A program made the translations under genes and the position numbers. A stretch of 64,000 nt of DNA from an uncultured candidatus Porisulfidus sp. (GTDB lineage Bacteria; Pseudomonadota; Gammaproteobacteria; Poriferisulfidales; Oxydemutatoraceae), in assembly GCA_963693105.1 (NCBI GenBank), contig OY843752.1, forward strand, positions 234,623 through 298,622. The letters run 5' to 3'. This document shows positions 1,522 through 63,007 of this stretch, in pieces. The notes under the pieces were generated by a model, which did not search any database, was not told the origin of the DNA, and worked only from the letters and a program-made list of their open reading frames with translations. Every line of letters starts with the position of its first letter. Positions within the stretch are counted from its first letter, which is position 1.

Positions 1522-1826
1522 ATGGCTCCGGCGGCGGGTCAGAGCGGACAGCAGCAGCAGGGCGATGAGGCCGGTCCAGCCGAAACTGCCGCCGCCGCGG
1601 ACACCGCCGGGGGCAAGCCTCGTCGTCGTCGGACTGAGCGGGTCGCGGATGACGCCGTTGACGACGACGCCGTCTTCATCGTTCGCGCCGCCGTCCTCGA
1701 TGACCGGGGCGGCAGCGTCCGCCGATGTCGTCCGGGCATACCCCGTCGAGCAGCCTCGCGAAACCGGGGCGGCTGCCGTCGCGCGTGTCGAACTCCCTGT
1801 CCTGTACGGGATTCTCCGGCGGCGGG
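1522..1826 (-). pseudogene. Out-of-frame relic of the C-terminal pre-anchor domain and GlyGly-CTERM-like tail, downstream of the 1,992-aa ORF stop
   Basis: The nucleotides are homologous to 7859-8170, the C-terminus of the 8,422-aa gene. One frame reads ENPVQDREFDTRDGSRPGFARLLDGVCPDDIGG. Another reads VIEDGGANDEDGVVVNGVIRDPLSPTTTRLAPGGVRGGGSFGWTGLIALLLLSALTRRRSH. Relative to the large gene there is a 29-nt deletion between ...CCCGGT and ATCGAGGAC. Neither frame matches the upstream ORF, which ends at TGA 1827-1829. Confidence 0.6.
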
Positions 1827-7643: not shown

Positions 7644-7684
7644 GTGCCATAAATCGGTCCAGAGACAGCAGGATACCTCCTCGC

Positions 7685-7706
7685 GGGGGGGGGGGGGGGG
7701 GGGGGG
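7685..7706. repeat. 22-nt homopolymer (G on plus strand, C on the coding strand) between the two giant genes
   Basis: Counted directly: G at every position from 7685 to 7706. It starts 42 nt upstream of ATG 7643 and lies 90 nt downstream of the stop of the 8,422-aa ORF. The homologous upstream region of the large gene has no such tract. Confidence 0.95.
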
Positions 7707-7795
7707 TGCGCAACTTGTTGTACCACACGGTTTTTGCAGCATACCCGCTCCGGCAATCTGCTTGCGGAAAACCACACTGCCAACCCGAGGCATGC

Positions 7796-10700
7796 TCAGC
7801 GACATCCTGCACGGGATTCTCCGGCGCCGGCGGCATGTTCAAGACTCCGCATTACAACATGGCTCCGGCGGCGGGCCAGAGCGGACAGCAACAGCAGCAG
7901 GGCGATGAGGCCGGTCCAGCCGAAACTGCCGCCGCTGTGGGCACGGCCGGATGCAAGCCTTGTCGTCGTCGGACTGAGCGGGTCGCGGATGACGCCGTTG
8001 ACGACGCCGTCGTCGTCGTTCGGGCCGCCGTCCTCGATATAAACCACCATGCAATCGCCGCTGCCCGGACCGGGGCGGTAACGCTCGCCGATGTCGTCCG
8101 GGCATACCCCGTCGAGCAGCCTTGCGAAACCGTAGCGGCTGCCGTCTTGTGTGTCGAACTCCCTGACAGCGCGGGTCGCCGGATCATACTTGACCAGGCT
8201 CAAATCTTCGCCGCGAAGGCTGGCTGGCAGCGGAATGATGACGCCCACCGTGCCGCCGACAACGCCCGCCGTCGTCACCTCGGCGTAGTCCACGTCGTGA
8301 ATCGAGAAGTCATACACCACCGGCAGACTCGACGGCAGGTTCTCCCGTGAAGACGCCGCGTAGTCACGGTAACGAACCTCTCCGTCCGCCGCGCCGGCCG
8401 CCTGCGCCTGCATCAACGCCGTGTCGCCTACGCGCAGACCGTGCTGCCTCTGCACCGGGCGGATGTGGTGCCAGACTCTCACGCCGGCCGCCCCCAAAAC
8501 CTCCACCGGCAGATGCGCGACTTCGTCATAGTCGTCGAAAGCATCGGCTATGCCGTCCCGGTCGGTGTCAATCAACGCACGCGCCAGCGGCGTACCCGCA
8601 TCCACCAGCGGGTAATTGAATGTCGCCGACACCCCGCCGACGCCCGGAACCTCGACCCGGACCTCCGTCGTCGCGCCCTCCGCCGTCGCCGGTATCATGA
8701 TCTCACTCTCCACCGTCATCGTCTCGCCGCCCGACTTCGCCTCCACTCTCAACGTGTAGGTCGCGCCGCGCTCCAGCACATTCACCGCCTGGCCGCCGCT
8801 CGTCAACACGGGCAGACCCAGCACCGGCGGAATCTCGGCCGCTGCCGGAACCGACAAAACACTCGTCTGCGTCGAAAGACCCAGCGACAATTCATTCGCT
8901 GCCGGGAAAATCGTCGCCGAAGGCCGCCACAACCTGCCGGAAACACCAGGCAACTCTTCTATCGTCCAGACACCGGGAACACTCGTGCGCGTCGTGAAAG
9001 ACTCGCCGTCGTCGTCCGTCTGCGCCAACACCGTCACCGCTATGCCCGTCGTGAACAAACGCTCCGAGGCCATGTTCAACTCCGGTATGCGTTGAATCAC
9101 CTGCTCCGGCAAACGGCTGACCGTGCTCAAATTCACCGCCCACAATCCGTTCGCTGCCGTCGCCAGCCAGCCAACCCTGTGGTCGGTGCTCGCAGACACA
9201 TTGTTCCAGTCCACAATCTCGCAGCCTCCCGCGCGAACCGGCAGCGCATAGTCCGCCGGGAACCGGCCAAGGCAGCCGTAGCCCGCCACGCCCGCATCGT
9301 AGCCTCCGTCGTAACCGAAAGTCTCGCTCAGGTAATACGCCTGCACGCTCGACGCCGCCGTCTGCGTCGCGCCCGACACCGATGAAACGCCGAGATGCGC
9401 CCGCACTCCGTGCTCGCGGATTCCGGACCAGGCAATGCGAACCGGAGAAACGCGACGGTCGGGGCGAATGGCAAACGCCGGCAAACGGCCCGGCAAGACC
9501 GACGACAGCGGATTCTCGCCCGCCCTGATCTCGGCCACGTCCGCGAGGCCGTCTCCATCCGCGTCCCTCGTCACTATGCTGCGCATTGCCGTCTTGTTCG
9601 TTTGCGAGAGCATCTGATTGCGCCCGATGGACGCATCGGCCAGACCTTCCTCTATGGCGCGGTCGAAGATACCGTCGCCGGCGCCGGGATATTGATACGA
9701 CATATACACCGACGCGCCGTCGGCTTCGGTCAGATTGCGCTCCAGCTCCAGCACGATGAATCCCGGCTCGATATAGCGCGCGTTGCTCACCACGACCGTG
9801 CCTGAACCCGGCCCGGACCTGACTTCCACCGAAAAACCTTCCAGGCCCGAAACCGCCGTTCTCAACACGACATCGGCCGCTTCCGCCGTCGCCTGTGACG
9901 GAAGCAATATCGCCAGATCCTCGTCGGCTTCAAACCACACCTGGTTGCGGCCCGCGGCATACAAGCCGTTCTCCAGTTCCGGCGCCACCGTATCCGTGCG
10001 CAATATCATCGCGTTCACTTCCGGCGGCGTCCCGATGCCGGCGCCGCTGCCGCCGCCGCCGGTGGCTGCCGTCAGGGCGAAGGTGAAACTCTCTTCCCGG
10101 TCGTCATCGTCCCTTGCAATCTGGCGGGCGGCGACGCTGCATCTACGGCCGGGACACACGTTTTCTCCCGACACCGACTGCGTGCCGGTTATCGGGAAAC
10201 CGGCGTCCGGGTTCACGAAGTCCTGCGGCGACGCCGACGGAGAAACGCTGCCGGTGCTGATGCTCCAATCCAGCGACAGCGACTCCGTCAATTCGCCCCC
10301 TTCGAGAAGAACATCGAATGTCGGCTGTCTGCCTTCGGCAAAGCCGCTCGCAGGGCTTATCAACGTCACCGTCGTCGGGTCGTTGTCGGTAATCATGAAT
10401 GTTTGCGGTGAACCGGCTGCACGAACCACGCCGGCGCTGCGCGCGGCATCGTCGGAGACACCGACGTTGAAACTCTCGTCCGCCTCGTTCAGCGTATCCG
10501 CAACCGTGACGACGGTGATGGCGCCGGCGGTCTCGCCGACGGCTATCGTGATGCGGCCATTGCCGGCGTCCGCGTAGTCGGATGACGAAGCGGCGTCGGC
10601 GCCAGACGGCCCGATGACATAGTCCAGCGTCACTGGCTGCGTGTGTTCGCCGCCGCTCAACACCACCGCGACCGTCGCCGTGGCGCCCTCGGCGACAGCG

Positions 10701-22700: not shown

Positions 22701-25700
22701 ATCTCCTCTTCATTGTCGCCCGGAGCAAACACGACCCGGCCATTCGGCAGACTGTTAAACGAGTCGCCGCCCGCACTGCAAAAGTCCGCCGCCTCCACGC
22801 CGGCAGGCGCGCCGGCGCTGGCCCTCCACGACACCGTCACCGGCGCCGTGTGCGGCACTCCCCGGGCAAGCCTCAGGCGGACGACCGTGGGCGTGGTTCC
22901 TTCGCTGACGGCAGCCGGGGGCGCCGCGGACAGGATGCGCGGCGGCGGGCGCACACGGATGGCGACCGTAGCGGAATCGCTTAGCAGCGTGAGGTCGTCC
23001 GTCACCGTGAGCCGGAAGTACAGCATCGGCGTCGCCAGCCGCGCCGTGAACGTCGCGGTGGCGGCATCGGCGTTGCTCAAGCCGGCACCGGTAATCACTG
23101 CGGCGTCGGCGCTCATCGAGGCCACCTGCCGCCACCGGTACGTCAATGCGCCGGCGTTGCCCGCGTTGCGGCTGGCGATGCCGCTCAAGGTAACGGTGTC
23201 GCCCGAAGTCGGCTGCGAGGGGCTGAAGGCCGCCACGGCAACGGGCGCCGTGTTGTCGCGGTGAATGATGACGACCTCGCGCGGCGTACTGCGCTCGCCG
23301 CCGCTGTCCACCGCCACGATCTGATGCCGGTAGGTCGTGGCGCCGCCGGTCTCCCGGTGGGCGGGCACGGTGAATCGAGTGATGCGTCCGGGCACCACAT
23401 CCGGCTCCAGGGCATCGCTGAAGAAACTGTCGCTGGCGCCGCGCGTACTCCACTCGAAAAAGCGGTCGTCCAGCAGCGCTCCTTCATCAAAGTCGCTGGA
23501 GGCGGCGGTCAGGACAATCTCCTCGTCCTGCCGCACCGTCAGGGTATAAGCATCGTCGGCGCCGAGGACAATCACCGTCACATCGCCGGTAACAGCCACA
23601 TCGGGCGGAATCGGCACATCGGCGTCGCGAAACCTGATGCTGACAACAGCAGTCGCCGTAGCCGGCTTGTAACCGGCTTTGCTCACGACAACCGTCAGGC
23701 GGAAATGGTAATTGCCGGTGACATGGACCTCCGGCTGGATGGCGGCGGCGGCGATGCCGTCCGTGGAAACTGTGCCGGCGGCGCCGGTCAGCACACCGAG
23801 ATACGCGGTGTCGGTCACGGCCACGGCGAGGGCGCCGGCGGCGGTGGACACCACCTGCAGCCATTGATACGTCAAGGTACTGAGCGGCGCGACCTCGCCC
23901 GCCGCGCGGGTAACGGTGGCGGTTAACGTGTAGGCCACACCCTGATTGTTGTCTTCAAAGTTGTCGGCGGCCACAATCACCGGCGGCTGCAACAGCTGGT
24001 CGCTGGCGGCAATGGCGGCGGTGGCGCTCGTCGTGCCGAGGCCGATGCCGCCCACCGTTCGCGGCTCGCCAAGAGTAACCACCAATGTCTCCGTGGCCTC
24101 GGTGGCGGGGTCGTCGGCCACCCTCAGCCCAATCAGGCCGCTGGTCTCCTCGGCGGCGATAATCAATATGCCCGATGTCTGCCCGGCAAGACCGTCCGGC
24201 AACACGAGGTCGTAGTCGGCGGTGTCACCCAGCACCGCGAAGGGCACCGTCACCGGGGTCGTCGGCACGCCATTTTCAAGCGTCACCAGGAAAGTCGCCG
24301 TGGCGCCTTCGTTGACGGTGGCCGGGTCGGCGGCGATGTGGACGGTGATGGGGTCGTTCGCGGCGATGGTCACCGTCGCGGTGGCAGTGGTCACGCCGCT
24401 GTTCTGGCCGCCGCCGCCGCGGGCGTTGCTCAACGTCAGCGTCAGCGTTTCAGTGGTTTCGTTCAGATTCTCGTCGGCAATAGCGACGCGGATCACCTGG
24501 CTTCCGGTGGCGCTGAAAGAAAGCTCGCCGCTGGCCGCCGACGGCGAAGTGTAATCCCGGCTGTCCACATCGCCGCCTATCGTCCAGGTCACCTGCGCCG
24601 GTGATGTTCCCGGCTCCGGCGCCATGCCGTCCAGATTCACGGTGAACGCCGCCTGGCCGCCCTCGACGACGGCGGCGGCGGTGGTGGCGACGGAAAACTC
24701 GCGGTCGAACTCGCGGAAAATCACCGTAACCACGGCGTCGGCGTCGGCGGTTTCGATATTGCCGCCGGCGGCGCCGATGCCGACATTGGCGCCGTCAAAG
24801 GCCACCGTCAGGGTGCCGGTGCCGGTATCGATTCCGATGTCGTTGACGCTGGTCAGGGAGATCACCGCGCTGGTGACGCCCGCCGCAAAGACGAGGGGGC
24901 TGCCGGGGTTGTCGGTGAACGGCGGCGGGTTGTCGCCGCTCTGCGTCACGCTGTACGGCACCGTCAGCCGCGCCGCGCTCCGTTTGTTCAGGTTCACCGC
25001 CAACTCCACGCTGCGGCCCTCGTTAATGGACACCGAGGTGGTGGCGAAGGAGACGGTGATGTCGTCGTTGTCCAGTATCGTGAAAGTCTGCACCGGATTG
25101 ACGACGGTTTCTTCGCCGACGGCATTGAACCCGACCGTGGCCAGGAAAACTTCGCTCGCCTCGTTCAGGTCGTCGTCAACAACGGGAATCTGAATGCCGG
25201 CATTGGTGGAGCCGGCGGGCATCGTGACCTGGCCGCTGGCGGGGCCGGTGTAATCGTCGCCGGCGGCGGCGTTGATGGTGGCGTCGTCGCTGTCCTCGTC
25301 AGTGGCGTATGTTACCGGCGTCGGCCTGGAGAGTTCGCCGCCGCTCAAGGTGACGTTGATGGCGGCGTCGGCGTCCTCGTTGACATCGCCGCCGCCGGTC
25401 ACGGTGGCGGTGATCGGGTCGTCGTCGGGTATCGTCACCGCCAGCGAGCCGAAGCGCGGGCCGATGTGGTCGGGATTATCGGGATCGCCCAGCCCGCTGA
25501 CAAAGAGGCGCCGACTGTCAAAGAGGCGGGTGCCGCCGTCGGCGTCGGGATCGTCCACGCTGACGCGGACGGTGAACCGCTCCGGCGCCTCGTTCAGGTT
25601 GTCGCCGACGACAGTGGCGGTGAAACTTCTGGTCGTGCCGCTGGGGTCATCCGGGCCGAAAGACAACTGCCCGGTTGCCGCCACGAAGTCGCGGTCGTCC

Positions 25701-28700
25701 GCCCTGTCCACCTCGTCATTATTGGTCGTCAACTGCCAGGTCACGGTGGTCGGCACGGTGAACGGCGAGCCAATCAGCGTAACCAGGTAATCGCGGCTTT
25801 CGTCGGAGTCGGTCTCGTCAATGTGGTCCGGCCCGGTCACGGTCAACTGGCGCGCCTCGACATGAATCGCGACGCCGCAGCCCGAGTCATCCGCCAGATT
25901 GACTTCGCCAGCGCCCGGGCCGGGGACCAACGTTCCTGGTAGATTGCTGTTGTCCAGATAGAATCGGCCTACCTCTCCGGAAAATATTATATTTCCGTCA
26001 GTCCGGGAATATCTGCCGGTGACGTTATTGAATCTGGTAGCCTCGGGTATGCCGTCATCGCGGACATGAAAAGTGACAACCGCGTGCGTGCTGCCGGCGG
26101 GGATGGTCACCCGGCCGCTCAGCCTGTTAGAGGCCATATTATTGAGTTGGTCGTCGGCGGTGGTGGAAGCGAAGTCCGGGTTGTCGTCAGGATTGTCGCT
26201 GATTCTACTTACCAAATCACTGTACATCTCCAGGCGCCAGACCACAGTGATATCCGCTACGCTCGGATAATACTCAATGGGCCTGTTGACGCCGGGGGCG
26301 AGGCCACTGAAATCGCCCAGGACAACATGGAAAGTCGCCGTGGTGCCCTCGACCAGTTCATAGCCCGGATTGACTTCTTCAATAGTCAACTCACCAACAC
26401 TGCAAAACCCCGGCAACCCGGTAACCACCGGACGGTTGGCGGCGGCCAGCTGCCCGGTGAACCAACTGTCCTGACCGCCGATGATATGGACAGAGATGGC
26501 ATCGCTCTGGAGAATGACGACCTCGCCGACAAGCCCTCCACCCGCTTCGCCGAACGATACTCGCAGTGTCTCGGCGCCCTCGTTGATACCGTCTTCGGTC
26601 ACCTCCAGAATCATCTGCACGGACAACTGGCCCGCGGGTATCGTAACCGTGCCCGCCGTGGCATCCGCGCCCACGCCAACCGGCTGCGTGATGTCGAAAT
26701 CATCCGCATCCACTCCGGATCCGGCCACCGAGAAAGGCACCACCACAGCCCCCGGCTCCTGCCTGAGCAACGTCACGGTAAAGGTAACCGCCTCGCCCTC
26801 GCTGACAGAAGAAGAATCTACCGCGATACGGAAGTTGGCCCGGTCGTCGTCGTGTATCGTGCCGTCTCGTTGCGCCATGCCCAACTCGGCGAAAAAGTTG
26901 CTTTGCGGGTCGCTGAGGGTTGCGGTGTACGTCTCGGAGCCTTCGATGGCATTGTCGTTCACCGTCGGCACCTCAACGACGGTCGAGGTCATGCCGTCTG
27001 CAATGGACAGGGTGCCGGAGGGAAACACGGCGCCAACAAAATCTCGCGCCTCCGCCGGATTGCCGCCGGTGCTGGTCGCGGCGATGGCCCAGTCCGCCGT
27101 GACACTGCCGTCGGACGGCGGCCCGTCGGTGATGGCGACGGTGAAACGAATGACCCCGCCCTCGGTCACCGCGCGCGGCGCGGACACAATGTCGAGAGTC
27201 TGCCTCGGCAATACATTGATGGCGATGATGTCGGAATCGCTTCTCATGGTATTTTGATCCGTCACCGTCAGGCGGAAGTACAACATTGCCGTGGACGATG
27301 ACGCGGTGAAATTCACCGCCGAGGCGCCGGAGACTGTCAGCACCACCGCATCCGCGGTAACCACTTCGGCGGCGTCGCTGTCCATCGTCACCTGCTGCCA
27401 TTGGTAGGTCAATCCGCCGTTGCCGCCCGCGTTGCTGCTGCCGCTGCCGTCCAGCGTCACCGGGTTGCCAGTCCCGGCCTTGCGGTCATCGCCTGCTGCG
27501 GCGACCGGCGCGGCGCTGTCGCGGTGAATGATGTCCACCTGGCGCGCAGCACTGCGCTCGCCACCGCCGTCCACCGCCACGACCTGATGCCGGTAGGTCG
27601 TGGCGCCGCCTCTATCCGGGTGGACGGGCACGGTGAACGCGGTGACGCGCCCGGGCGTCACGGCCGGACTCAGGACGGTGTTGAAGAAGCCGGGAGTGCC
27701 GAGCGTGCTCCATTCATAACCTGCGTCTTCGTCCAGAACGACGGGGGTGTCCCCCGGGTCCAGGTCGGTGGCGGTGGCGGTGACGACCACGCTATCGCCC
27801 CCCCGAACCGTCAACGTCAAATTGCCGGCGCCGTCGGTGGCTGACATGGAGGCGCCGTCGGCGGTCATCACGGGTGTGCCGGGCACATCGGAGTCGCGGA
27901 ACCGGACGCTGAAGACATCGCTCACCGTGGTATCAGTGTGGTCCTCCCCGCTCGCGACGACGGTCAGGCGGAAGTGGTAGTTGCCGGTGACATACACCCG
28001 CGGTCTGATGGAGGCGCTGGCAGTGACGCTGCCGGACGATGAAAACGTGCCGCTGGCGCCCGTAATCATGCCGAGATCTGCGTCGTCGCCAGCGGCAACG
28101 GCGGCGGCGCCAACGGCGGTGGACACCACCTGCTGCCATTGCCAGCTCAGGGTGCTGTAGCGCAGGATGTCGGAGGCGGCGCGGGTAATCTCGGCGGTCC
28201 AGGAATAATCGCGGCCCGTCCCGTCGGGCGCCTTCTCAAAATTGTTGTTGTCGAGGTCATCGGCGGGGTACACAACTGTCGGCGCCGGTACCGGCCGGTC
28301 GCTCGCGGCGATTGTTACGGTCGCGCTGCTGCTCTCCCCGAGGCGGATGCTTCCCGCCGTTCGCGGCGTGCCAAGAACAACCCGCAGCGTCTCATCGCCC
28401 TCGGCGATGTCGTCGTCAACAGCACGCAGATCGAATCTACCGAATCTAACTGGGCCATCGTCAATTTCAACCGTGTTCGGCGGCGCGGCGGGGTTGAATA
28501 TAAAGATGTCGCGAATCTCGAAATCGGCGGCGTCACCGATCACCATAAAGGGCACTTCCACCGGCATGGTGCTAACAGACCCGGTGATGACCACCCTGAA
28601 CCGCACCGTGTGGCCTTCTCCCACACTCCCACTCTCAGGAGGGATGAGATTGACGATGATTTCGTCACTGTCGTTGATGTCAAACACGCCGCGGTCCATG

Positions 28701-31700
28701 CCGGGCAAAACCACGCCGCCGCCCGCGCCAACGGTTGCCTCGCCCACTTCGAGGACGATGGTTTCCGTCGTCTCGTTGAGGTTGTCAGCGGCAATCAACA
28801 CCATGACCTCAGCAGCCGTTCCACCTGCGGGTATCGTTGCCATCTGCGACACCGGCCCGGTGTAGTCCTCGCCGCGAACCGCGCTGCCTGCGAGCGTGAA
28901 CGGCACCGTTACATCCGCCGCCGAACCTTGCGGCGCGCCGGTCAGGAGGATAGTGAAAGCCGCGGCCACGTTGCCTGTTTCCGGTTCCTCGACCGCACCG
29001 CCGATGACGTCGTAGGTGATGGGGTCGCTCGGTTCGACGACGACCATCGCGGCGGCGACAGCGATGGCGGTGCCGCCGATGCCGCCGCCGCCGACGGCGT
29101 TGCTGAGCCTCAAACCCAGACTGCCGGCGCCTTCATTCAGGCCGTCGTCGTGGATGCCGATGTCTATCGTTTTCGGTGTTTGCCAGTCGGCCTGCGTGAA
29201 AGTCAGGGTGCCGGTCGTCCTGCCGCCTGCAACGCGGTAGTCCGCGGCCTCCAGATTGCCGGTGACATTCCAGTCAACTGTCGTGTTGGCCGTCGGCGCG
29301 GCGCCGACCAGACGGACCTCGAAAGTCGCCGTGCTGCCTTCGCTCACCGATGCGGCACGGGCGGCCACCCTGTAAGTGCGCGCCGCGCTGAACACATTGA
29401 CCGACACTGCGGCGAAGGCGCCGAGCGCGACCCTGCCGCCGCCCGCGCCGACGACCGGCTCGCCCAGGGTTACGGTCAGCGTCTCGTCCTCCTCCAGCGT
29501 GGCGGCGTCGCCTGCAAGACGAAGAACGATTGCGCCGGTGATCGCGCCGGGCGCAATCTCCAGACTGCCGGCAGTGATGTCGGTGTAATCCTCCGCTTCC
29601 ACGTCGCCGCCGATTGTGTACGGCACCGTAATCGTCGTTGCCGAACCACCCGGCGCGCCGTCCAGCGTGACGATGAAAGTCGCCGTGCTGCCCCTGGCCG
29701 AGGTGTCGGGCGGGGCGATGCCGACGGTGATGTCGTCGTCGTCCACCAGGGGAATGGTCAACTCGACGGCGCCCGTTGCCGGAATGCCGCCGAAATCGGC
29801 GGCGTCAACGCCGCCGACTCCGTCCATCGCAACGACAATGGTGCGGGTGGCCTCGTTCACGTCGTTGTCTGCTCCTGTCGTCAGGACGACCGTGCCCGTG
29901 CTGACGGTATGCCCCGGGCGCGGCGCGATGACAACGCTGCCAGACGTCCCCCCGGGTGAAACCGTGCAGACAGCGGCGCTGACGCAGCCGGTCACGTTGT
30001 AGTCCAGCGACATGGTATTCAGCGCCGCTGGCAATTCGGCGCCCTCGACGATAAAGTCCACTACCGCCGTGGCCGCGCCGCCGGTCGCGCCTTCGGTAAA
30101 GCCGTCGTCGTCGGTGCGCGCGATGCGGCGCGTAACGCGGTCGGTGTCGTTGATCTGCACTCTTACCGAAGTGTTTTCGGCATGTCTTGAAATCTCGCCG
30201 CCGCCGCTCAAAAGCGCGCCGCCCGAAAGCTCGCCGATGGCAAAGCGGAAGGCCTCGACACCTTCCAGAAAGGCATCGTCATTGGCGCTGAAAGTCACCG
30301 TGGCGCTGTAAGACGGCGCGCTCAGGGTGACGGTGTTGGTGGCCACACCAACGCCGCTGATGGCGTAATCGGCGGCGGTGGCATGGCCGCTGACGGTGGC
30401 GGTGGCGGTGGTGATGGTGTAACCCATGCGGATATCCGACACCGGCGGGCCGCCCGTGGCGCTGACAACAATGGCCAGCGAACCGCCCTCGTCCAGGACG
30501 GGCGCGGCGACGATGACGGCCTGCACAATCATCTGTTCCTGCACGGTGATCCGGACTACATCCGTGGCGGTCTGCCGGGTGACGCTGTCCGCCGCCGTCA
30601 GGCGGACGTAGTAATGCCCCGGCGCCGCGGGCGCAGTGAAAGTGGCGGTGGCGGCGGTGGCGGCGGTCACCGTGCCTATCGTGTTGTCGGCGGTGGCGGG
30701 AACGACGGCGGCGCCGGGTTCGTCCGACGCCACCTGCTGCCACAGATAACCGAGCCGGTCGGTAAATCTCGAGCCGCGGGCGTCGTGACTGCCGCTGGCG
30801 TCCAGCACCACGGTGGCGCGCCCCGTGCTGACGGCCTGGTCGGCGCCGGCGAAGGCGACAGGCGGGGTGCTGTCGTGTACGGTTACAGTGATGTAGTCCG
30901 TGTGCGTCAGGCTCGCGCGGCCGGGCTCACGATTGAAACCACCGACAGCAGCAATCGCGCTGTCGGCGACAGTCAGGGCCAGAGTGAAGCTTTGTGTTTC
31001 TCCCGCCGGAAGATCAGGCCAGACGACGCCTACGGTGCCCGTCGAGGGGTCGTGGGGGCCGAAAGTGACTGACGGATTGCCCGGCGTGGGGGCGGGGTCG
31101 GTTTGGCGCCATTGATACGTCAAGCCCGGGTCGTTGTCCGGGTCGCTGCCGCTGCCGTAGAGAATGGTCATGGTGCTCTCCTGAAACGGGCCGAAGTTCG
31201 AACCAGGGTTGGCCGTCGGCGCTTGCGTGTCGGTCACATAGATTATGAATTGGGGAACCTCTCTCCGGACATCGGTGTAGTGACGTCTCTGCGCCGTCAC
31301 AATGGGTCTGAAAGTCAGCTGTTCTTGAACCGCGACCATCGGCGCCGTAAAGACTGCCCTGGACTCGACCCGGTTTTTTCTGGTCGTAGTAGTGGAGATG
31401 TCGAGAGTAACCGGTGTATCGCCCGGGGAGAGAACCTGCTCCCAGGTGTAGGTCAGGGTGATCGGGGCCTCGCTTTCGGGGTAAGCGGCGGTGCTGATGA
31501 GTGTAACTGTAGCGTTCTCTTGCTCGGCCCTCGCCGGCTGCCGGGTGGTGACCGTCGGCTGACCGGGCAGCATCTGGTCGCTTGGGTTAATGGTGACGGT
31601 GTGAGTGTCCCTTGCGTAAGAGTGGCCCATGCTGACATAAGCCAGGCGAATGCCGAGTTCCTCCTCGGCGGTCTCTGTCGTGTCGTCGTCCCTGATGCGC

Positions 31701-33064
31701 AAATCGACTTCCGCAGCGGCCGTGCCTGCACTCAGCGTAAAGCCAAGGTTACAATTTGTCGTGCTGCCGCTGGGACAAACTGTTCTCAGATTCGTCCTGT
31801 CGGTGATGGCGGTGGGCCGGGCAATGATGGTTCCTGCACGGTTTATCAGCCTGACTGGACCGGCGACCTCCCACTCATTCCCATCCGTGGTATCGGCGGA
31901 GAATATCAGCCCCAGAGAGTCGTTTCCATTCTGGACATCGGCGGTCAGATTGATGCGGATGGTGAAAGTGTCGCCTTCATCCTGATTCCCGGTCGGCAGT
32001 CCCGCCGCGTCAATGGACGCTGTGTAGGCATCGTTGGCGGGGATGGTGATGGTAACCGGTCTAAGCTGAAATTCGCGTTCATTGTCATCGCCCGTGCCGA
32101 TTTCGTGCGAGATCAAACGCAACATAATGGTCTCGGCAGTCTCGGGTGCGATGTCATTCGTCACTCTGACCGGTATGTCGGCGGCGCCTATATTAGCGGG
32201 GATACTGATCGTGCCCATATTTGAGCCGCGGTTATAACTGACAACTGCCCCATTGGAATCTGTCCCGGGGGGAATCGTGAAATCATCAACTCCAGCGGTG
32301 GACCTGTCAAAGTCAACAGTGAACCCCACCATTGCCGTGTCAGTGCGTGGGGTAAGGTCGAGAGTCCTGATTGCAACCCCCCCCTCCACCCCCTCTGCAT
32401 AAGAGCCGCCCGAGACGGCGTTCGCTACCGAACCACGGTTACTGGCAATGACGGTAATGGTTGTAGGTTGGAAGTTGAGCACGCTCGCCATGATGGGCTG
32501 TGCCGCGGGTCTGGTGACGCCATCATTCGTCTCATAGTCATTTCCCAGGTTTTGCCGAAATTGAATGACAAATGTCTCGTTGCCTTCTGCACGAAAGTCG
32601 CTGCATATACGCATAGGTGTGCTTAGATAGACCACGCTTACACTAGGACCATAAGGAACCGCGTCTGGCGTATTCAAAACAAAGTTATCGGCATTCTCCA
32701 TCAGTGGCTGCGCGCAGACGCCGTCCGATCCGGCAAGATCCTCAAAACGGAGTTCATCCCTGTGAGCACTGTTATTCTGGAAGAGAGTCAACACAAAGGC
32801 ACCAGGAGTCTGATTCCGGACGGGAACGCTGTACACGATACGGAAATAAAGGACATCACCCTCTTGCACCAGATTGTGACCCCCTCTGAAGAGCTGCCGA
32901 TTCTCATCCACCAACTGGACAGTAGTCACCCGGTCCTGTGCCGACACCGGTGCGGCCCACAACACACAAAGCAACAACAGACAGAAAACGCGCGATGCCA
33001 CGAGCGCAACAGCGGGAAAAATGGCCACGCAATGGCTCCGGCAACAGTTTGGGCAGAAAATCAT
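7796..33064 (-). CDS. Giant (8,422 aa) Calx-beta / PKD-like repeat surface protein with Sec-type signal peptide and GlyGly-CTERM-like C-terminal sorting tail
   Basis: A single open frame of 25,269 nt. The N-terminus is MIFCPNCCRSHCVAIFPAVALVASRVFCLLLLCVLWAAPVSA|QD. By eye there are roughly 50 modules of about 115-125 aa fitting the Calx-beta pattern (..V.EG..A.F.V.L......V.V.Y...G.A....DY......L.F..G......V.I..D..NE..E.F.V.L). Three cassettes carry LTY.W.QV PKD-like motifs. The C-terminus reads ...YIEDGGPNDDDGVVNGVIRDPLSPTTTRLASGRAHSGGSFGWTGLIALLLLLSALARRRSH. Confidence 0.9.
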   Translation of the reverse strand: MIFCPNCCRSHCVAIFPAVALVASRVFCLLLLCVLWAAPVSAQDRVTTVQLVDENRQLFRGGHNLVQEGDVLYFRIVYSVPVRNQTPGAFVLTLFQNNSAHRDELRFEDLAGSDGVCAQPLMENADNFVLNTPDAVPYGPSVSVVYLSTPMRICSDFRAEGNETFVIQFRQNLGNDYETNDGVTRPAAQPIMASVLNFQPTTITVIASNRGSVANAVSGGSYAEGVEGGVAIRTLDLTPRTDTAMVGFTVDFDRSTAGVDDFTIPPGTDSNGAVVSYNRGSNMGTISIPANIGAADIPVRVTNDIAPETAETIMLRLISHEIGTGDDNEREFQLRPVTITIPANDAYTASIDAAGLPTGNQDEGDTFTIRINLTADVQNGNDSLGLIFSADTTDGNEWEVAGPVRLINRAGTIIARPTAITDRTNLRTVCPSGSTTNCNLGFTLSAGTAAAEVDLRIRDDDTTETAEEELGIRLAYVSMGHSYARDTHTVTINPSDQMLPGQPTVTTRQPARAEQENATVTLISTAAYPESEAPITLTYTWEQVLSPGDTPVTLDISTTTTRKNRVESRAVFTAPMVAVQEQLTFRPIVTAQRRHYTDVRREVPQFIIYVTDTQAPTANPGSNFGPFQESTMTILYGSGSDPDNDPGLTYQWRQTDPAPTPGNPSVTFGPHDPSTGTVGVVWPDLPAGETQSFTLALTVADSAIAAVGGFNREPGRASLTHTDYITVTVHDSTPPVAFAGADQAVSTGRATVVLDASGSHDARGSRFTDRLGYLWQQVASDEPGAAVVPATADNTIGTVTAATAATATFTAPAAPGHYYVRLTAADSVTRQTATDVVRITVQEQMIVQAVIVAAPVLDEGGSLAIVVSATGGPPVSDIRMGYTITTATATVSGHATAADYAISGVGVATNTVTLSAPSYSATVTFSANDDAFLEGVEAFRFAIGELSGGALLSGGGEISRHAENTSVRVQINDTDRVTRRIARTDDDGFTEGATGGAATAVVDFIVEGAELPAALNTMSLDYNVTGCVSAAVCTVSPGGTSGSVVIAPRPGHTVSTGTVVLTTGADNDVNEATRTIVVAMDGVGGVDAADFGGIPATGAVELTIPLVDDDDITVGIAPPDTSARGSTATFIVTLDGAPGGSATTITVPYTIGGDVEAEDYTDITAGSLEIAPGAITGAIVLRLAGDAATLEEDETLTVTLGEPVVGAGGGRVALGAFAAVSVNVFSAARTYRVAARAASVSEGSTATFEVRLVGAAPTANTTVDWNVTGNLEAADYRVAGGRTTGTLTFTQADWQTPKTIDIGIHDDGLNEGAGSLGLRLSNAVGGGGIGGTAIAVAAAMVVVEPSDPITYDVIGGAVEEPETGNVAAAFTILLTGAPQGSAADVTVPFTLAGSAVRGEDYTGPVSQMATIPAGGTAAEVMVLIAADNLNETTETIVLEVGEATVGAGGGVVLPGMDRGVFDINDSDEIIVNLIPPESGSVGEGHTVRFRVVITGSVSTMPVEVPFMVIGDAADFEIRDIFIFNPAAPPNTVEIDDGPVRFGRFDLRAVDDDIAEGDETLRVVLGTPRTAGSIRLGESSSATVTIAASDRPVPAPTVVYPADDLDNNNFEKAPDGTGRDYSWTAEITRAASDILRYSTLSWQWQQVVSTAVGAAAVAAGDDADLGMITGASGTFSSSGSVTASASIRPRVYVTGNYHFRLTVVASGEDHTDTTVSDVFSVRFRDSDVPGTPVMTADGASMSATDGAGNLTLTVRGGDSVVVTATATDLDPGDTPVVLDEDAGYEWSTLGTPGFFNTVLSPAVTPGRVTAFTVPVHPDRGGATTYRHQVVAVDGGGERSAARQVDIIHRDSAAPVAAAGDDRKAGTGNPVTLDGSGSSNAGGNGGLTYQWQQVTMDSDAAEVVTADAVVLTVSGASAVNFTASSSTAMLYFRLTVTDQNTMRSDSDIIAINVLPRQTLDIVSAPRAVTEGGVIRFTVAITDGPPSDGSVTADWAIAATSTGGNPAEARDFVGAVFPSGTLSIADGMTSTVVEVPTVNDNAIEGSETYTATLSDPQSNFFAELGMAQRDGTIHDDDRANFRIAVDSSSVSEGEAVTFTVTLLRQEPGAVVVPFSVAGSGVDADDFDITQPVGVGADATAGTVTIPAGQLSVQMILEVTEDGINEGAETLRVSFGEAGGGLVGEVVILQSDAISVHIIGGQDSWFTGQLAAANRPVVTGLPGFCSVGELTIEEVNPGYELVEGTTATFHVVLGDFSGLAPGVNRPIEYYPSVADITVVWRLEMYSDLVSRISDNPDDNPDFASTTADDQLNNMASNRLSGRVTIPAGSTHAVVTFHVRDDGIPEATRFNNVTGRYSRTDGNIIFSGEVGRFYLDNSNLPGTLVPGPGAGEVNLADDSGCGVAIHVEARQLTVTGPDHIDETDSDESRDYLVTLIGSPFTVPTTVTWQLTTNNDEVDRADDRDFVAATGQLSFGPDDPSGTTRSFTATVVGDNLNEAPERFTVRVSVDDPDADGGTRLFDSRRLFVSGLGDPDNPDHIGPRFGSLAVTIPDDDPITATVTGGGDVNEDADAAINVTLSGGELSRPTPVTYATDEDSDDATINAAAGDDYTGPASGQVTMPAGSTNAGIQIPVVDDDLNEASEVFLATVGFNAVGEETVVNPVQTFTILDNDDITVSFATTSVSINEGRSVELAVNLNKRSAARLTVPYSVTQSGDNPPPFTDNPGSPLVFAAGVTSAVISLTSVNDIGIDTGTGTLTVAFDGANVGIGAAGGNIETADADAVVTVIFREFDREFSVATTAAAVVEGGQAAFTVNLDGMAPEPGTSPAQVTWTIGGDVDSRDYTSPSAASGELSFSATGSQVIRVAIADENLNETTETLTLTLSNARGGGGQNSGVTTATATVTIAANDPITVHIAADPATVNEGATATFLVTLENGVPTTPVTVPFAVLGDTADYDLVLPDGLAGQTSGILIIAAEETSGLIGLRVADDPATEATETLVVTLGEPRTVGGIGLGTTSATAAIAASDQLLQPPVIVAADNFEDNNQGVAYTLTATVTRAAGEVAPLSTLTYQWLQVVSTAAGALAVAVTDTAYLGVLTGAAGTVSTDGIAAAAIQPEVHVTGNYHFRLTVVVSKAGYKPATATAVVSIRFRDADVPIPPDVAVTGDVTVIVLGADDAYTLTVRQDEEIVLTAASSDFDEGALLDDRFFEWSTRGASDSFFSDALEPDVVPGRITRFTVPAHRETGGATTYRHQIVAVDSGGERSTPREVVIIHRDNTAPVAVAAFSPSQPTSGDTVTLSGIASRNAGNAGALTYRWRQVASMSADAAVITGAGLSNADAATATFTARLATPMLYFRLTVTDDLTLLSDSATVAIRVRPPPRILSAAPPAAVSEGTTPTVVRLRLARGVPHTAPVTVSWRASAGAPAGVEAADFCSAGGDSFNSLPNGRVVFAPGDNEEEINFYFCADNKMEDRESYDIIFSMLSDGTGGVGTTEFDGGAATLTVSGSVEPSVRLPEVSLSGPGVVGVEGSSQTWVVQLDPAHSRAVEVEYRVAGTGGADSVVAGDFVDAQGNPLASLPLTGSVTIAIGATAAAITLYYRNDDDEPGGFAEGDERFEVSLTGFVRDPGVLFATTLDTAGPETSLGGIVNIAGVEAGVTASAESAAEGTSAVFTIALSGVQSQATTVHWTLGGDAQRGVDYTGDAIAGQPDTMRYQSVIAAGSTRADVVFSLTDDMLNESSETLVMTIVLTGGVRPVDDASSARYAILDNDAMVVNLSGPAGAVAEGAMASFTIQLGRLPTRTLSVPWRVTAAAAGVSAEADDFADFDAIPFTGMVTFVTGLVNIGLGVTPSPGTLMVGATTAPTVVNIVIGSDRTLERDEQFFEFTVGSATVTGAYGEVGVVGSPVLSSIAADAAAEVTLTALQESVDEAGVTSPTFLITLGDDAGPLLSGADVSLSYMLTGTAVSGADYAGASTGSVLISGGSSGTRLVLALVNDVVNESTESITLSLGGAEATIHIEDDDEITGTLDAPSSALLEGATATFTITIGGGSLSAGTILTIPWRITTSSSAADDDVAPADFGLGRAVFPSGSVSFVMGESEKATSAIGIVEDGLGETTETFVLVLGEPSGAAGVTSLRGVSASATIAASSESLFRFTAMLEDADQAAVEEATTSVNIIVGVAATGGAQRSTLSVSYSLSGTATPGADYDVSATTGTVVFGVGETMRTIELGILPDIYAESTESIVLSLSDPVLGDNPGAVAVGAPSSATVLIRPGQRLGISLQSPSQLTEGAAAAVVSMEAVGMARFEATATVTYTLGGTAVAGVDYSVPQGYANSSGTVTLPPDWPNTFSPGLSITPIDDGDNESTETIVVTISDVAIEGGYWSIETGSVVLRLVDDDALTVSLQGPDSAAAEGGNADFTVVLSSSTPTADVEVDYEIVPGGGIEASDIDGALTGTITIGVGSMSEEIAIAIADDTVPESTETLTVMLTGGRSAGVVEVSQAAAAVDVERSDVAGIAVIAASTTLTEGQSAVFDLQFVSAGGAALSLGEIGGATSAMVSWTLGGTATAGADYTGATTGATQVPFNTTASVTVVLTDDEVNESDETVVLTLNDVRVNGASLDYLELSASSGSATVVVADNDDAMVSVERAGADTSPVNEGDEVMFHINLDVESQGAVEVPFTIGGVTTQDYALADTMLSVTLSPGSTRATIALTLLPDGMAETTETLVVSLQPPQPGSGAGRVTLGAAATAEVAIRENAATTLFYEIDSVDAVVAEGATATFNIALVNEVDGGVNTATVMYSITGTVEREDYAAGTTGTLTFTPSDWQTTQRVVIPLLSDNLNESSETLTVQLSSPSGGAQEAPALRGAGRARVMIAESDPVTYSIEGPGRVGEGEDAMFTVILSGAVSGSEGAVTVPYTIAADAGDYAGLPSNTVTLAAGTTSTMITAMTVEDAVNESTGMLVVTLGAASEAGFMKDAAAGAVTRDTDPARHGATAMIEDNDALTVAVRSSVTTASEGMDVVLDVILSGAASGSAASIEVPYEVAAAAGITTDDYTTTPTGPLTIAAGSTTGTITVGIERDNRQEEDEILTVVLGEPEVGADGGEVSLSSILADRSAGVTIVRNTTSVRVLTITGTGVVAEGDAGMSVEYTMVLDGAGFSAATSVTWAVVHGTTTATDFSGAISGAVSFATNAATASFAILLAGDSLNEATETFGVEVGTENPLADGGTDVGEPLQVSITDDDELTVSVSADTAGVSEGATASFTLTLDGGTPTADVDVSFTLGGSAVSADYTAAASPLTIAAGTTSGELMLPIHADNLNESTETLTVELTDAVNMPSAGSIVLGTTMAEVSIAQSDAAEVVLARTSGEEASEGGTAEFVLTLLDTPSADVVTVTWMASVITQTNTGVGDRGPNEADNSDFRAVGDVNAVITSGAIVGTTVVEIGDDESAFSIGIAQDRREEDAESVVIRIIGISAGTGAGEISASPDVANLTIPANLAATRFLSVRANQAEVSEGMDAQFTVELSGEDEDAPTADVTVDWSVVGGGANPAEADDYTATTGSLSFSLFESQVVSVSIRDDGLNESAETLMVMLTNAAGGGNPSAVISTDSAAVVVGQSDPITYSIESPGQVGEGEDAVFTVRLSGAVSGSEGAVTVPYTIAADAGDYAGLPSNTVTLAVGTTSTMITAMTVEDAVNESTGMLVVTLGAASEAGFSKDAAAGAVTRDLDPARHVATAMIEDNDALTVSVSPSAATAPEGTDVVLDVILSGAASGSAASIEVPYEVPAAAGITTDDYTTTPTSPLTIDAGATTGTITVSIEYDGMEEDAETLTVVLGNPIASAGGGAVALGTSVRADITIPENTTSVRALTITGTGVLSEGDAEVSVEYTMGLMGTGFAEARNVMWEVVHGTTTATDFTGATSGMVSLGPSAATASFTVGIAGDSLNEATETFSIEASVEDSVSDGGTDSGDPFEVSVTDNDELTVSVLADTAGVSEGATASFTLTLDGGTPTADVQVSFMLDGSAVGGAADAGGDYAIVASPLVIAPGTTIGKVMLPIHADNLNESTETLVLTLDRAETSAGLTSLGAAAMAEVSIAQSDAAEVVLARSSGEEASEGGTAEFVLRLDTPSADVVTVTWMASVITQTNTGTGDRGPNEADNSDFSGGVNAVITSGAIVGTTVVEIGDDESAFSIGIAQDRREEDDESVVIRIIGVSAGMGAGEISASPDVANLTIPANLAATRFLSVHANQETIEEGMDAQFTVVLSGVDDPTADVTVDWSVAGGGANPAEADDYRATTGSLSFSVFGSQVVSVSIRDDGLNESAETLVVMLTNAAGGGNPSAVISTASAEVVVGQSDPITYSIEGPGQVGEGEAAMFTVTLSGAVSGSEGAVTVPYTIAADAGDYAGPPSGAVTIATGTTSMVITAATVEDVLNESTGTLVVTLGAASDAGFMKDAAAGAVSRGTPSAATAMIEDNDALTVSVSPSATMAPEGTNVVLDVVLSGAASGSAASIEVPYSVPAAAGITADDYATTPTSPLTIAAGATTGMITVSIEYDGMAEDAETLTVVLGNPIASAGGGEVALGTSVRADITIPENSTSVRVLTITGTGVVTEGDAEVSVEYTMGLMGAGFAEARSVMWEIVHGTTTATDFFGATSGMVSLGPSAATASFTVGIAGDSLNEATERFSIEASVEDSVSDGGTDSGDPFEVSITDDDELVVTVSADTGEVSEGATASFTVTLSEGTPTADVEVSFMLRGSAVGGAADAGGDYAIVASPLVIAPGTTIGEVMLPIHADNLNESTETLALTLDSAATSAGLTSLGASTMAEVIIRQSDAAEVVLARSSGEEASEGGTAEFVLRLDTPSADVVTVTWMASVITQTNTGTGDRAPNSIADSDFRAVGDAVITSGAIVGTTVVEMGNVTSIFSIGIAQDSREEDAESVVIRIIGVSAGMGAGEVSASPSVANLTIPANLAATRFLSVRADQAEVSEGEVAQFTVELSGEDEDAPTADVTVDWSVAGGGANPAEADDYTATTGSLTFSGFGSRSVSVTIRDDGLNESAETLVVMLTNARGGGNPSAAINIGSAEVVVRQSDPITYSIEGPDQVGEGEDAMFTVALSGAVRGSEGAVTVPVMPPGGTASGADHAALPATVTVSTNTTTVQLTVALTDDLLNESAETLTVTLGAASDAGFSKNAAAGAVSRGTPSAATAMIVDNDALTVSVSPPPPTAPEGTDVVLDVILSGAASGSAASINVPYEVADATGITTDDYAIAPTSPLTITTGTTAGTITVSIAYDGMAEDAETLTVILGEPVAGAVGGEVALGAADRTSITIPENTTAARTLTIAASLDFAEGDGPYNTLEISMGAADRLFEGETVIAWRISGSGDGATTTDLSNTGNVTFAAGSRTGSVSEITVVDDGLNEATESFIFSLQDLMSDGGSAFEAVAVTITDNDPVTATLSGAGAVAEGATATVAVVLSGGEHTQPVTLDYVIGPSGADAASSSDYADAGNGRITIAVGETAGAITVVTVADTLNEADESFNVGVSDDAARSAGVVRAAGSPQTFMITDNDPTTVTLISPASGFAEGRQPTFDVLLEGGELTESLSLDWSISTGSVSPSASPQDFVNPDAGFPITGTQSVSGENVCPGRRCSVAARQIARDDDDREESFTFALTAATGGGGSGAGIGTPPEVNAMILRTDTVAPELENGLYAAGRNQVWFEADEDLAILLPSQATAEAADVVLRTAVSGLEGFSVEVRSGPGSGTVVVSNARYIEPGFIVLELERNLTEADGASVYMSYQYPGAGDGIFDRAIEEGLADASIGRNQMLSQTNKTAMRSIVTRDADGDGLADVAEIRAGENPLSSVLPGRLPAFAIRPDRRVSPVRIAWSGIREHGVRAHLGVSSVSGATQTAASSVQAYYLSETFGYDGGYDAGVAGYGCLGRFPADYALPVRAGGCEIVDWNNVSASTDHRVGWLATAANGLWAVNLSTVSRLPEQVIQRIPELNMASERLFTTGIAVTVLAQTDDDGESFTTRTSVPGVWTIEELPGVSGRLWRPSATIFPAANELSLGLSTQTSVLSVPAAAEIPPVLGLPVLTSGGQAVNVLERGATYTLRVEAKSGGETMTVESEIMIPATAEGATTEVRVEVPGVGGVSATFNYPLVDAGTPLARALIDTDRDGIADAFDDYDEVAHLPVEVLGAAGVRVWHHIRPVQRQHGLRVGDTALMQAQAAGAADGEVRYRDYAASSRENLPSSLPVVYDFSIHDVDYAEVTTAGVVGGTVGVIIPLPASLRGEDLSLVKYDPATRAVREFDTQDGSRYGFARLLDGVCPDDIGERYRPGPGSGDCMVVYIEDGGPNDDDGVVNGVIRDPLSPTTTRLASGRAHSGGSFGWTGLIALLLLLSALARRRSHVVMRSLEHAAGAGESRAGCR
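7859..7936 (-). other. GlyGly-CTERM-like sorting signal (Gly-Gly-Ser, hydrophobic helix, Arg cluster)
   Basis: Encodes SGGSFGWTGLIALLLLLSALARRRSH. This matches the architecture described for rhombosortase-type GlyGly-CTERM tails (GG motif, TM helix, basic cluster). The ORF runs on for 21 more residues before its stop, probably fortuitously in high-GC DNA. Confidence 0.6.
10730..18448 (-). repeat. Coding tandem array of the about 2.2-kb six-Calx-beta supermodule inside the giant gene (3 full units plus a diverged partial unit)
   Basis: The anchor TTCGATTGAATACGTTA(T/C)CGGGTC (antisense of PITYSIE) occurs at 11786, 13994, 16205 and 18425. The spacings are 2,208, 2,211 and 2,220 bp, all multiples of 3. 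The antisense ORFs in the track recur with the same period (12825/15027/17238 and 12590/14792/17018). Confidence 0.85.
22938..24002 (-). repeat. PKD-like triple-domain cassette, copy 3
   Basis: Encodes DQLLQPPVIVAADNFEDNNQG...TLTYQWLQVVS...VTGNYHFRLTVVV...FFEWSTRG...TTYRHQIVAVDSGGERS...VIIHRDNTAPVA...LTYRWRQVAS...MLYFRLTVTDD...IRVRPPPR. It is colinear with copy 2 at 27200-28300. Confidence 0.6.
27200..28300 (-). repeat. PKD-like triple-domain cassette, copy 2
   Basis: Encodes DRPVPAPTVVYPADDLDNNNFEK...TLSWQWQQVVS...VTGNYHFRLTVVA...GYEWSTLG...TTYRHQVVAVDGGGERS...DIIHRDSAAPVA...LTYQWQQVTM...MLYFRLTVTDQ...INVLPRQ. Confidence 0.6.
30533..31575 (-). repeat. PKD-like triple-domain cassette, copy 1 (more diverged)
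   Basis: Encodes LPGQPTVTT...ITLTYTWEQVLSPGD..., ...GLTYQWRQTDPAP..., ...LGYLWQQVASDEPG...YYVRLTAADS...VVRITVQEQ. Confidence 0.5.
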
Positions 33065-33090: not shown

Positions 33091-33118
33091 ATTATAACCT
33101 CTATCCATTCGATTTCAC
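33091..33118 (-). promoter_or_regulatory. Putative sigma70 promoter of the giant gene
   Basis: Minus strand GTGAAA (33118-33113), 16 nt spacer, then a perfect TATAAT (33096-33091) 27 nt upstream of ATG 33064. No clear Shine-Dalgarno precedes the ATG, so the start and TSS remain uncertain. Confidence 0.3.
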
Positions 33119-34924: not shown

Positions 34925-34981
34925 TATGTTAAAATCGTTATCGGCTTGCGGCACCGCACCGTGCACGCAAGTCTGGCACGG

Positions 34982-38434: not shown

Positions 38435-39865
<1,431 letters not shown>

Positions 39866-47521: not shown

Positions 47522-47529
47522 TGCCGTCT

Positions 47530-62997: not shown

Positions 62998-63007
62998 GCG
63001 CTTCTTT
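62988..63007. terminator. Hairpin terminator overlapping the rpsI stop
   Basis: GAAGCGC-TGA-GCGCTTC (62988-63004) followed by TTT. Lies between convergent rpsI and the 63007 gene. Confidence 0.4.

Follow-up and report, generated by a model that had tools for sequence, protein, structure and literature searches.

A giant Calx-beta protein with a predicted Sec leader and a GlyGly-CTERM-like tail in an uncultured gammaproteobacterium

The giant gene and its product

The stretch of DNA analyzed here, hereafter the window, comprises 64,000 nucleotides of contig OY843752.1 from an uncultured candidatus Porisulfidus species, a gammaproteobacterium. Its dominant feature is a single gene on the reverse strand, which runs for 8,422 codons (25.3 kb) with one stop at its end and none within, confirming the uninterrupted frame reported in a preliminary description of this DNA. 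The gene and the features associated with it are listed in Table 1. GC content by codon position (0.62/0.53/0.77) matches that of neighboring housekeeping genes, and the composition of the many open reading frames (ORFs) on the opposite strand inside the gene is that of antisense frames. The mature product has a computed mass of approximately 847 kDa and a computed isoelectric point near 4.05, making it very acidic.

The 8,422-codon gene is real, and its frame is credible because the longest exact repeat within bases 1-34000 of the window spans 178 bp and because comparably large members of the same family occur in independent assemblies. The window genes lie on a contig of 1.83 Mb; this size points to, but is no proof of, an assembly that is well resolved or made from long reads. 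Repeat copies in the giant gene and its tandem neighbor reach 98% identity to each other, and in-register mis-joins of such near-identical units would keep the frame open; the copy number is therefore verifiable only with reads.

Most of the protein consists of Calx-beta modules. The Pfam model PF03160 scores 242 and 359 bits on the two halves of the protein, against a gathering threshold of 27 bits, which places the protein within the Calx-beta family. Used alone, this generic model resolves 18 modules. When a profile is started from a Pfam-verified module and refined by iteration over the protein, it resolves 51, each with an E-value of 5.5e-14 or better, in good agreement with an earlier estimate by eye of about 50. 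Three cassettes break the array, previously recognized by an LTY.W.QV motif and borne out by the five occurrences of LTYxWxQ, all of which fall within them; according to Pfam, the protein contains K319L-like PKD domains in three stretches together with REJ. Toward its C-terminal end, the array is built of a longer unit of six modules, a super-repeat missed by Tandem Repeats Finder (longest period 500) and detected by a separate repeat search. The region between the leader and the array (aa 43-219) has no match in Pfam or among PDB sequences.

The N-terminus, MIFCPNCCRSHCVAIFPAVALVASRVFCLLLLCVLWAAPVSA↓QD (arrow, predicted cleavage), has the character of a Sec-type leader with an AxA-type site (WAAPVSA↓QD), and here both the sequence and a hydropathy scan agree with the preliminary description. 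If translation began instead at a GTG at codon 13, the leader would be 30 residues long, with the cleavage site unchanged. The downstream paralogue has the ATG and the leader in common with the giant gene. Across the entire protein, the hydropathy scan reveals only two hydrophobic segments, namely the leader and a helix near the C-terminus. Together with the AxA-type site of the predicted leader, this is the pattern of GlyGly-CTERM proteins, which have a signal peptide and no further transmembrane segment.

The array gives way to a non-repetitive C-terminal region of about 740 residues (7680-8422), shorter than the 900 or so first proposed, which has no match in Pfam or among PDB sequences. 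Directly before the tail lies an anchor-proximal module on which NF041766 scores 28.4 bits (cut-off 32), the alignment covering only profile positions 63-90 of 92. The same model scores 34.0 and 39.2 bits on two distant homologues, P0002 and P0003. An AlphaFold model of the last 259 residues has a mean predicted local distance difference test (pLDDT) score of 56.5, which is too low for comparison of its fold.

Table 1. Features of the giant gene, its tandem paralogue and the window rhomboid
Feature	Window position	Strand	Basis
Sigma-70-like promoter match: GTGAAA, 16 nt, TATAAT (10/12)	33091..33118	-	27 nt 5' of ATG; consensus match only
Giant gene, 8,422 codons including leader	7796..33064	-	Open frame, coding composition
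Predicted Sec-type signal peptide, aa 1-42, cleavage VSA↓QD	32939..33064	-	AxA site, hydropathy, conserved in paralogue
N-terminal non-repeat region, aa 43-219, predicted distal tip of fiber	32408..32938	-	No Pfam or PDB match
51-module Calx-beta array, aa 220-7679, broken by three PKD/REJ cassettes	10028..32407	-	Pfam and self-trained profile
Cassette 1, PKD/REJ-like, LTYxWxQ motifs, aa 491-850	30515..31594	-	Pfam, motif scan
Cassette 2, PKD-like, K319L-like PKD, aa 1585-1956	27197..28312	-	Pfam, motif scan
Cassette 3, PKD-like, aa 3018-3380	22925..24013	-	Pfam, motif scan
Super-repeat zone of ~2.2-kb units (6 Calx-beta modules, ~737 aa), ~3.5 copies, mostly 80-94% mutual identity	11093..18085	-	Repeat search
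Family-specific non-repetitive C-terminal region, aa 7680-8163	8576..10027	-	33-47% identity in related proteins
Choice-of-anchor-U-like anchor-proximal module, aa 8164-8375, two invariant Cys, DGGxNDxDGxxNG motif	7940..8575	-	NF041766
Tripartite tail HSGGSFGWTGLIALLLLLSALARRRSH, aa 8376-8402	7859..7939	-	Motif, NCBIfam scans
20-codon extension past Arg cluster, and stop	7796..7858	-	Last 12 codons homologous to non-coding DNA 5' of giant gene
C22 homopolymer, 42-63 nt 5' of paralogue ATG (7643), replacing promoter-like segment of giant gene	7685..7706	-	Upstream comparison
Tandem paralogue, leader MILCISNG...WAAPASA↓QD, 15 Calx-beta modules; ORF ends before tail	1827..7643 (ORF to 7805)	-	Directly downstream of giant gene
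Out-of-frame relic of paralogue's anchor-proximal module and tail (GGGSFGWTGLIALLLLSALTRRRSH)	1522..1800	-	29-bp deletion and out-of-frame junction
Generic rhomboid-family intramembrane protease gene	41465..42247	-	Only rhomboid in window, 8.4 kb from giant gene start

The C-terminal tail and the tandem paralogue

The tail, SGGSFGWTGLIALLLLLSALARRRSH, contains the three parts of a sorting signal: a Gly-Gly-Ser motif, a Leu-rich transmembrane helix and a cluster of Arg residues. Its motif, ...AHSGGSFGW..., lacks Cys and conforms to the GlyGly-CTERM signature; signature motifs of the GlyGly type never have Cys, whereas those of the MYXO type always do (Haft and Varghese, PMC3237569). The helix, FGWTGLIALLLLLSALA, precedes RRR and contains 41% Leu, 12% Gly and 18% Ala, with 6% Ile and 0% Val, in keeping with GlyGly-CTERM helices, for which 34% Leu and 13% Gly and a skew away from Val and Ile are reported (Haft and Varghese, PMC3237569).

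The preliminary description had proposed that a sub-threshold GlyGly-CTERM score combined with a better one for another sorting class would refute a GlyGly-CTERM assignment. Formally, this is the case: the GlyGly-CTERM model TIGR03501 stays below its cut-off, and TIGR03382, the Gly-Cys type model with a cut-off of 15.85, scores 14.9 bits on the 50-residue tail, 14.0 on a 100-residue fragment and 15.9 on a trimmed 45-residue fragment. The tail is nonetheless a poor fit to that class, because the defining Cys is missing. TIGR03901 (MYXO-CTERM, cut-off 20) scores 7.7-10.4 on the tail, which, in the absence of Cys, does not belong to MYXO-CTERM. The MYXO-CTERM/myxosortase proteins of Myxococcota, such as MtsC and TraA, resemble the giant protein in having a tripartite tail and in the borderline TIGR03382 match, and differ in their invariant Cys and in their host, which here is a gammaproteobacterium. 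Display of MYXO-CTERM proteins depends on the type 2 secretion system (T2SS). These proteins are reported to undergo intramembrane cleavage by myxosortase and to be sorted to the cell surface. For PEP-CTERM, the C-terminal domain of the type 9 secretion system (T9SS), and autotransporter or two-partner secretion (TPS) proteins, no NCBIfam or Pfam model matched the whole protein or the tail at E-values up to 10.

Directly downstream of the giant gene lies a tandem paralogue, overlooked in the preliminary description, with a probable start at 7643 and modules built from the giant gene's super-repeat. Its ORF stops at 1827. A relic of an anchor-proximal module and tail begins about 27 nt beyond, in other frames, and is interrupted by a 29-bp deletion, so that the paralogue, from its sequence, would seem to be either in decay or a copy without a tail. 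The untranslated relic tail, which differs from that of the giant protein at five residue positions plus one Leu, scores 17.2 bits on the GlyGly-CTERM model TIGR03501 (cut-off 15.5). The DNA 5' of the two genes is also homologous; the C22 tract, found only on the side of the paralogue, may serve slipped-strand phase variation or may be an artefact of sequencing. At the 3' end, homology between the two genes stops exactly past the RRRSH codons. Since the last 12 codons of the extension that follows in the giant gene are homologous to non-coding DNA upstream of that gene, the extension is a by-product of the duplication junction rather than part of an ancestral signal.

Related proteins and the genomic setting

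Relatives of the giant protein were collected by an exhaustive profile search of representative proteins followed by sequence retrieval. An earlier word-indexed search had returned one good homologue, and a scan of genome contigs with the C-terminal 742 residues returned no relative. The search profile grew to 632 positions and took in unrelated TSP3-repeat proteins, and its 11,470 total matches do not represent the size of the family. Family members have in common the C-terminal region of about 740 residues, at 33-47% identity, and are listed in public data without a family name, as 'hypothetical protein'. They also share the type of leader, the Calx-beta (and PKD) arrays, the kind of tail and the occurrence in tandem pairs. 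Five complete members were examined (5,901, 4,270, 3,329, 2,932 and 2,506 residues), all with AxA-type leaders. Related uncultured Gammaproteobacteria encode further proteins with the leader-plus-tail layout, 2,500-9,502 residues in length, such as MDD9869561.1, P0029 (5,901 residues) and the product of a 9,502-codon gene on ENA ERZ22155170 ctg25956l. Among the members seen, the window protein ranks second in size. In all of them a Gly run, a Leu-rich helix and RRR make up the tail, which is followed by 0-13 residues, as compared with 20 in the window protein, and an RRHHSG[GA]F-type signature recurs in family members. The 9,502-residue member, for instance, ends in ...GGGGGRRHHSGAFSPVGLAALLLLALYSRRRRAA and is followed in tandem by a paralogue of 3,121 residues.

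Similar tails are also found outside the family. The anchor-proximal module occurs in large proteins from other families, whose GlyGly tails are clearer; that of P0109 (3,821 residues) scores 17.4 bits on TIGR03501. The tail of the distant homologue P0002, which carries the same module, scores 15.7 bits. Furthermore, the curated GlyGly-CTERM list of 2011 already names 'outer membrane adhesin like' proteins in Shewanella. The architecture is uncharacterized in the literature searched, although it is not unique in sequence databases, and its unusualness was overstated in the preliminary description.

P0029, a 5,901-residue paralogue, and P0020 (1,936 residues) appear on the same 1.83-Mb contig as the window genes, from which we infer that they share one genome, which would then hold at least four genes with this tail. 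The presence of one C-terminal tag on several proteins is a hallmark of a dedicated sorting system.

The genomic positions of the family vary among related genomes, as is evident from a locus (L010) that differs from the window. There, a member of 2,932 residues (10001-18799) sits directly 5' of a copper oxidase gene, in a relative approximately 80% identical in L13, S9 and copper oxidase; the equivalent position in the window is taken by a D12 methyltransferase gene (with no detectable homology to the gene at L010) and holds no family member. At locus L011 (1-9529 and 20126-27118), the 9,502-residue member, which runs off the locus, is followed by its 3,121-residue paralogue, and a gene for a 2,330-residue SpvB/RHS/TcdB-type toxin-like protein lies just downstream.

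The only rhomboid gene of the window scores 119 bits on the Pfam Rhomboid model. Its active-site sequence GASGGIAG and its AHIGG motif indicate that the product would be catalytically intact, and four residues past the catalytic Ser it has Ala rather than the usual Tyr or Phe. The gene adjoins priA, both in the window and in the nearest relative (88% identity for the rhomboid, 82% for PriA; L002 9349-10128), whereas in more distant Coxiellaceae and Steroidobacteraceae loci no rhomboid occurs within 10 kb of priA. No component of a type 1 secretion system (T1SS), T2SS, TPS system or autotransporter was found among the window genes, and no recognizable T1SS gene stands beside any family member examined.

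The giant gene and its paralogue are situated between aroB and gltB, the start of which lies near 1337 and which runs off the window. On the other side, aroB (reverse strand) abuts and overlaps the start of mrcA (forward strand; window 33333-37384). Judging by the gene order of Pseudomonas, mrcA and aroB should be separated by pilMNOPQ-aroK; in the window they are absent from this position. A 320-residue ORF at 63007-63969 is similar to an interior segment of the large subunit of glutamate synthase (113 bits, positions 928-1165) and is separate from both gltB and gltD (38435-39847). A small HNH endonuclease ORF (44804-45394), with weak similarity to IscB/Cas9d-like HNH domains, occurs between priA and hemH. 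The multicopper oxidase gene is flanked by the D12 adenine methyltransferase gene (57436-58545) and an HNH_2/phosphorothioate-restriction-like ORF (60651-61559). Two adjacent ORFs (285 and 339 residues) at 46664-48549 on the reverse strand have a coding-type composition and match neither Pfam nor NCBIfam. Among RNA families, a tRNA-Ser(CGA) at 61937-62028 on the reverse strand is the sole match within the window.

Export, anchoring and alternative explanations

The reading that we favor, with a probability of roughly 0.55, is that the gene encodes a giant, acidic, calcium-binding fiber that leaves the cytoplasm by the Sec pathway and whose C-terminus anchors it at the cell envelope through a GlyGly-CTERM-like signal. 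Its components differ in strength. The prediction of a Sec leader combined with a sorting-type tail, as opposed to a T1SS substrate, is well founded. A GlyGly-CTERM/rhombosortase identity is plausible, while failing two membership tests. On the whole, the interpretation offered in the preliminary description is partly supported.

The contrast with T1SS substrates is best seen by comparison with the RTX giant adhesins (LapA, SiiE and Marinomonas MpIBP). These are likewise giant and very acidic, are presumed to form surface fibers, and carry long arrays of calcium-binding beta-sandwiches, Calx-beta-like ones in the case of LapA. The window protein, unlike them, has a predicted cleavable Sec leader, lacks a C-terminal T1SS signal region and contains not a single GGxGxD motif in its entire length. 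No gene for an ABC transporter, membrane fusion protein (MFP) or TolC lies nearby, and the absence of T1SS genes from the window, as of GGxGxD runs, had been correctly noted before. By these features it does not belong with the RTX/type 1 adhesins. With its C-terminus predicted as the anchor and its N-terminus distal, it would also have the opposite polarity. The T1SS, TPS/autotransporter, T9SS and PEP-CTERM routes were all rejected, as the respective signatures are missing.

Under the favored reading, the protein would be exported through Sec and its leader cleaved at VSA↓QD, after which the C-terminal helix would stop transfer in the inner membrane, leaving the Arg cluster and the 20-residue extension in the cytoplasm. 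By analogy with VesB, for which cleavage after the second Gly, attachment of glycerophosphoethanolamine and dependence on the T2SS have been reported (PMC6219818, PMC13393428), a rhomboid/rhombosortase-type intramembrane protease would cut after the Gly-Gly (...AHSGG↓SFGW...), and the new C-terminus would be joined to a glycerophosphoethanolamine lipid. The lipid-anchored fiber would then cross the outer membrane, probably through a T2SS. On the surface, the N-terminal region and the PKD cassettes would be distal and face ligands, in reverse of the topology of an RTX adhesin, and calcium binding would stiffen the Calx-beta array.

As a group, the established GlyGly-CTERM/rhombosortase substrates (Vibrio cholerae VesB, VesA, VesC and Xds; Shewanella ExeM) share with the giant protein a Sec leader without other membrane segments, a Cys-less Gly-Gly-Ser motif, a Leu-rich and Val-poor helix, an Arg cluster and the occurrence of several tagged proteins per genome. 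The giant protein is approximately 20 times larger and carries adhesin-type repeats in place of an enzyme domain. Further differences, together with other observations, weigh against the favored reading. While the features of the tail are GlyGly-CTERM-like as first proposed, TIGR03501 scores only 10.5 bits on the 50-residue tail, 10.7 when the extension is removed and 7.2 on the 4,122-residue C-terminal half, all below the cut-off. Most family tails likewise miss this model and show weak, sub-threshold matches to several other sorting models. The three-part tail described earlier is present, yet not at the extreme C-terminus, as 20 residues (VVMRSLEHAAGAGESRAGCR) follow RRRSH where canonical tails have 0-5 residues past the signal (PMC3237569). 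A rhombosortase, defined as scoring at least 84 bits on TIGR03902 and having His four residues after the catalytic Ser, is not found among the genes of the 64-kb window, which was the space searched. The window rhomboid, with 32.9 bits on TIGR03902 and Ala at the position of the signature His, is not one by these tests. Neither a rhomboid nor a recognizable T2SS gene stands beside any family member examined. Finally, no known mechanism explains the passage of an 847-kDa folded fiber through a type 2 secretin.

With respect to the tail, however, a curation rule of Haft allows low-scoring tails that align by homology to trusted ones to be promoted (PMC3237569). By this rule the giant protein's tail, judged from its alignment, is probably GlyGly-CTERM, whereas by TIGR03501 alone it would not be admitted. 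The homologous tails that pass this model, that of the paralogue's relic included, and the choice-of-anchor-U-like module placed just ahead of the tail also speak for such an assignment. That most family tails miss the model would allow for a form of the signal specific to this lineage. The tail is therefore best described as a lineage-specific GlyGly-CTERM variant, not as a proven member.

A tentative alternative, which we consider unlikely without dismissing it, carries this divergence further. The tails would constitute a new, lineage-specific sorting class, consisting of a Gly run, [R/S]-H-[S/H]-G-[G/A]-x-F, a Leu-rich helix and RRR, and served by a non-canonical enzyme, either the generic rhomboid next to priA or some unrelated protein of sortase-like type; surface display would result all the same. 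The failure of most family tails to register on TIGR03501 at all is as expected for such a class, as is the recurrent RRHHSG[GA]F-type signature, which is not known from canonical tails. An intact generic rhomboid with Ala past its catalytic Ser is also compatible with it, and a second rhomboid in V. cholerae, besides rhombosortase, is reported to cleave VesB (PMC11389362). On the other hand, three homology-linked tails pass TIGR03501 (17.2, 15.7 and 17.4 bits), and both the composition of the helix and the lack of Cys fit GlyGly-CTERM. Moreover, as the rhomboid adjoins priA in the nearest relative as well and neighbors no family member elsewhere, its nearness to the giant gene may be a coincidence.

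It is improbable that the C-terminal helix is instead a permanent inner-membrane anchor from which the protein is never released by proteolytic sorting, remaining tethered or being freed by some unrelated proteolysis. Two observations fit such an anchor: cleaved sorting signals do not typically carry a cytoplasmic extension of 20 residues, and the full-length protein stays below the cut-off of every curated sorting model. The extension, however, is attributable to the duplication, family members stopping 0-13 residues past the Arg cluster, and a signal that is recognized is suggested both by the choice-of-anchor-type module and by the conserved Gly-rich motif that directly precedes the helix. 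In addition, an array of at least 51 beta-sandwich modules, estimated at more than 200 nm, would be too long for the periplasm. We give very little credence to the notion that the 25-kb frame or its length is an artefact of assembling 2.2-kb super-repeats up to 98% identical, or that a misread N-terminus conceals a T1SS substrate, given the short exact repeats, the large contig (suggestive if not conclusive), the members of 4,270, 5,901 and 9,502 residues in independent assemblies, the leader conserved across the family and the lack of both GGxGxD and nearby ABC/MFP/TolC genes.

Two further systems bear comparison with the favored design. BapP of Pseudoalteromonas tunicata (PMC12153261) is a calcium-dependent adhesin with Calx-beta modules, a predicted Sec signal peptide and an unresolved export route; it is far smaller (12 beta-sandwich repeats), is encoded beside T1SS-like genes and has no reported tail of C-terminal helix and Arg cluster. 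The LPXTG giant adhesins of Gram-positive bacteria also combine a Sec leader with a C-terminal motif, helix and basic cluster on very large repeat proteins, and differ in their motif and enzyme, in being anchored to the cell wall and in having no outer membrane to cross.

A broader and rather doubtful extension of these results is that an undescribed tail subclass tags giant Calx-beta fibers of 2,000-9,500 residues, processed by a non-canonical intramembrane protease and conveyed across the outer membrane by a route so far not known for proteins this large. The fiber genes might then take up about 3% of a genome of approximately 1.8 Mb or larger, in an uncultured and possibly sponge-associated lineage. 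Should the host be a sponge, the bacterial arrays might interact with its own Calx-beta-based aggregation factor. The organisms are uncultured and not yet experimentally tractable, which limits the immediate value of the finding. If the tag is processed like that of VesB, however, a lipid-anchored fiber of 850 kDa must cross the outer membrane, which no known mechanism explains, and the family provides a defined set of sequences with which the sorting enzyme could be sought by phylogenetic profiling. Work on giant bacterial adhesins has been dominated by type 1-secreted RTX proteins, to which this gene and its relatives add a second design.

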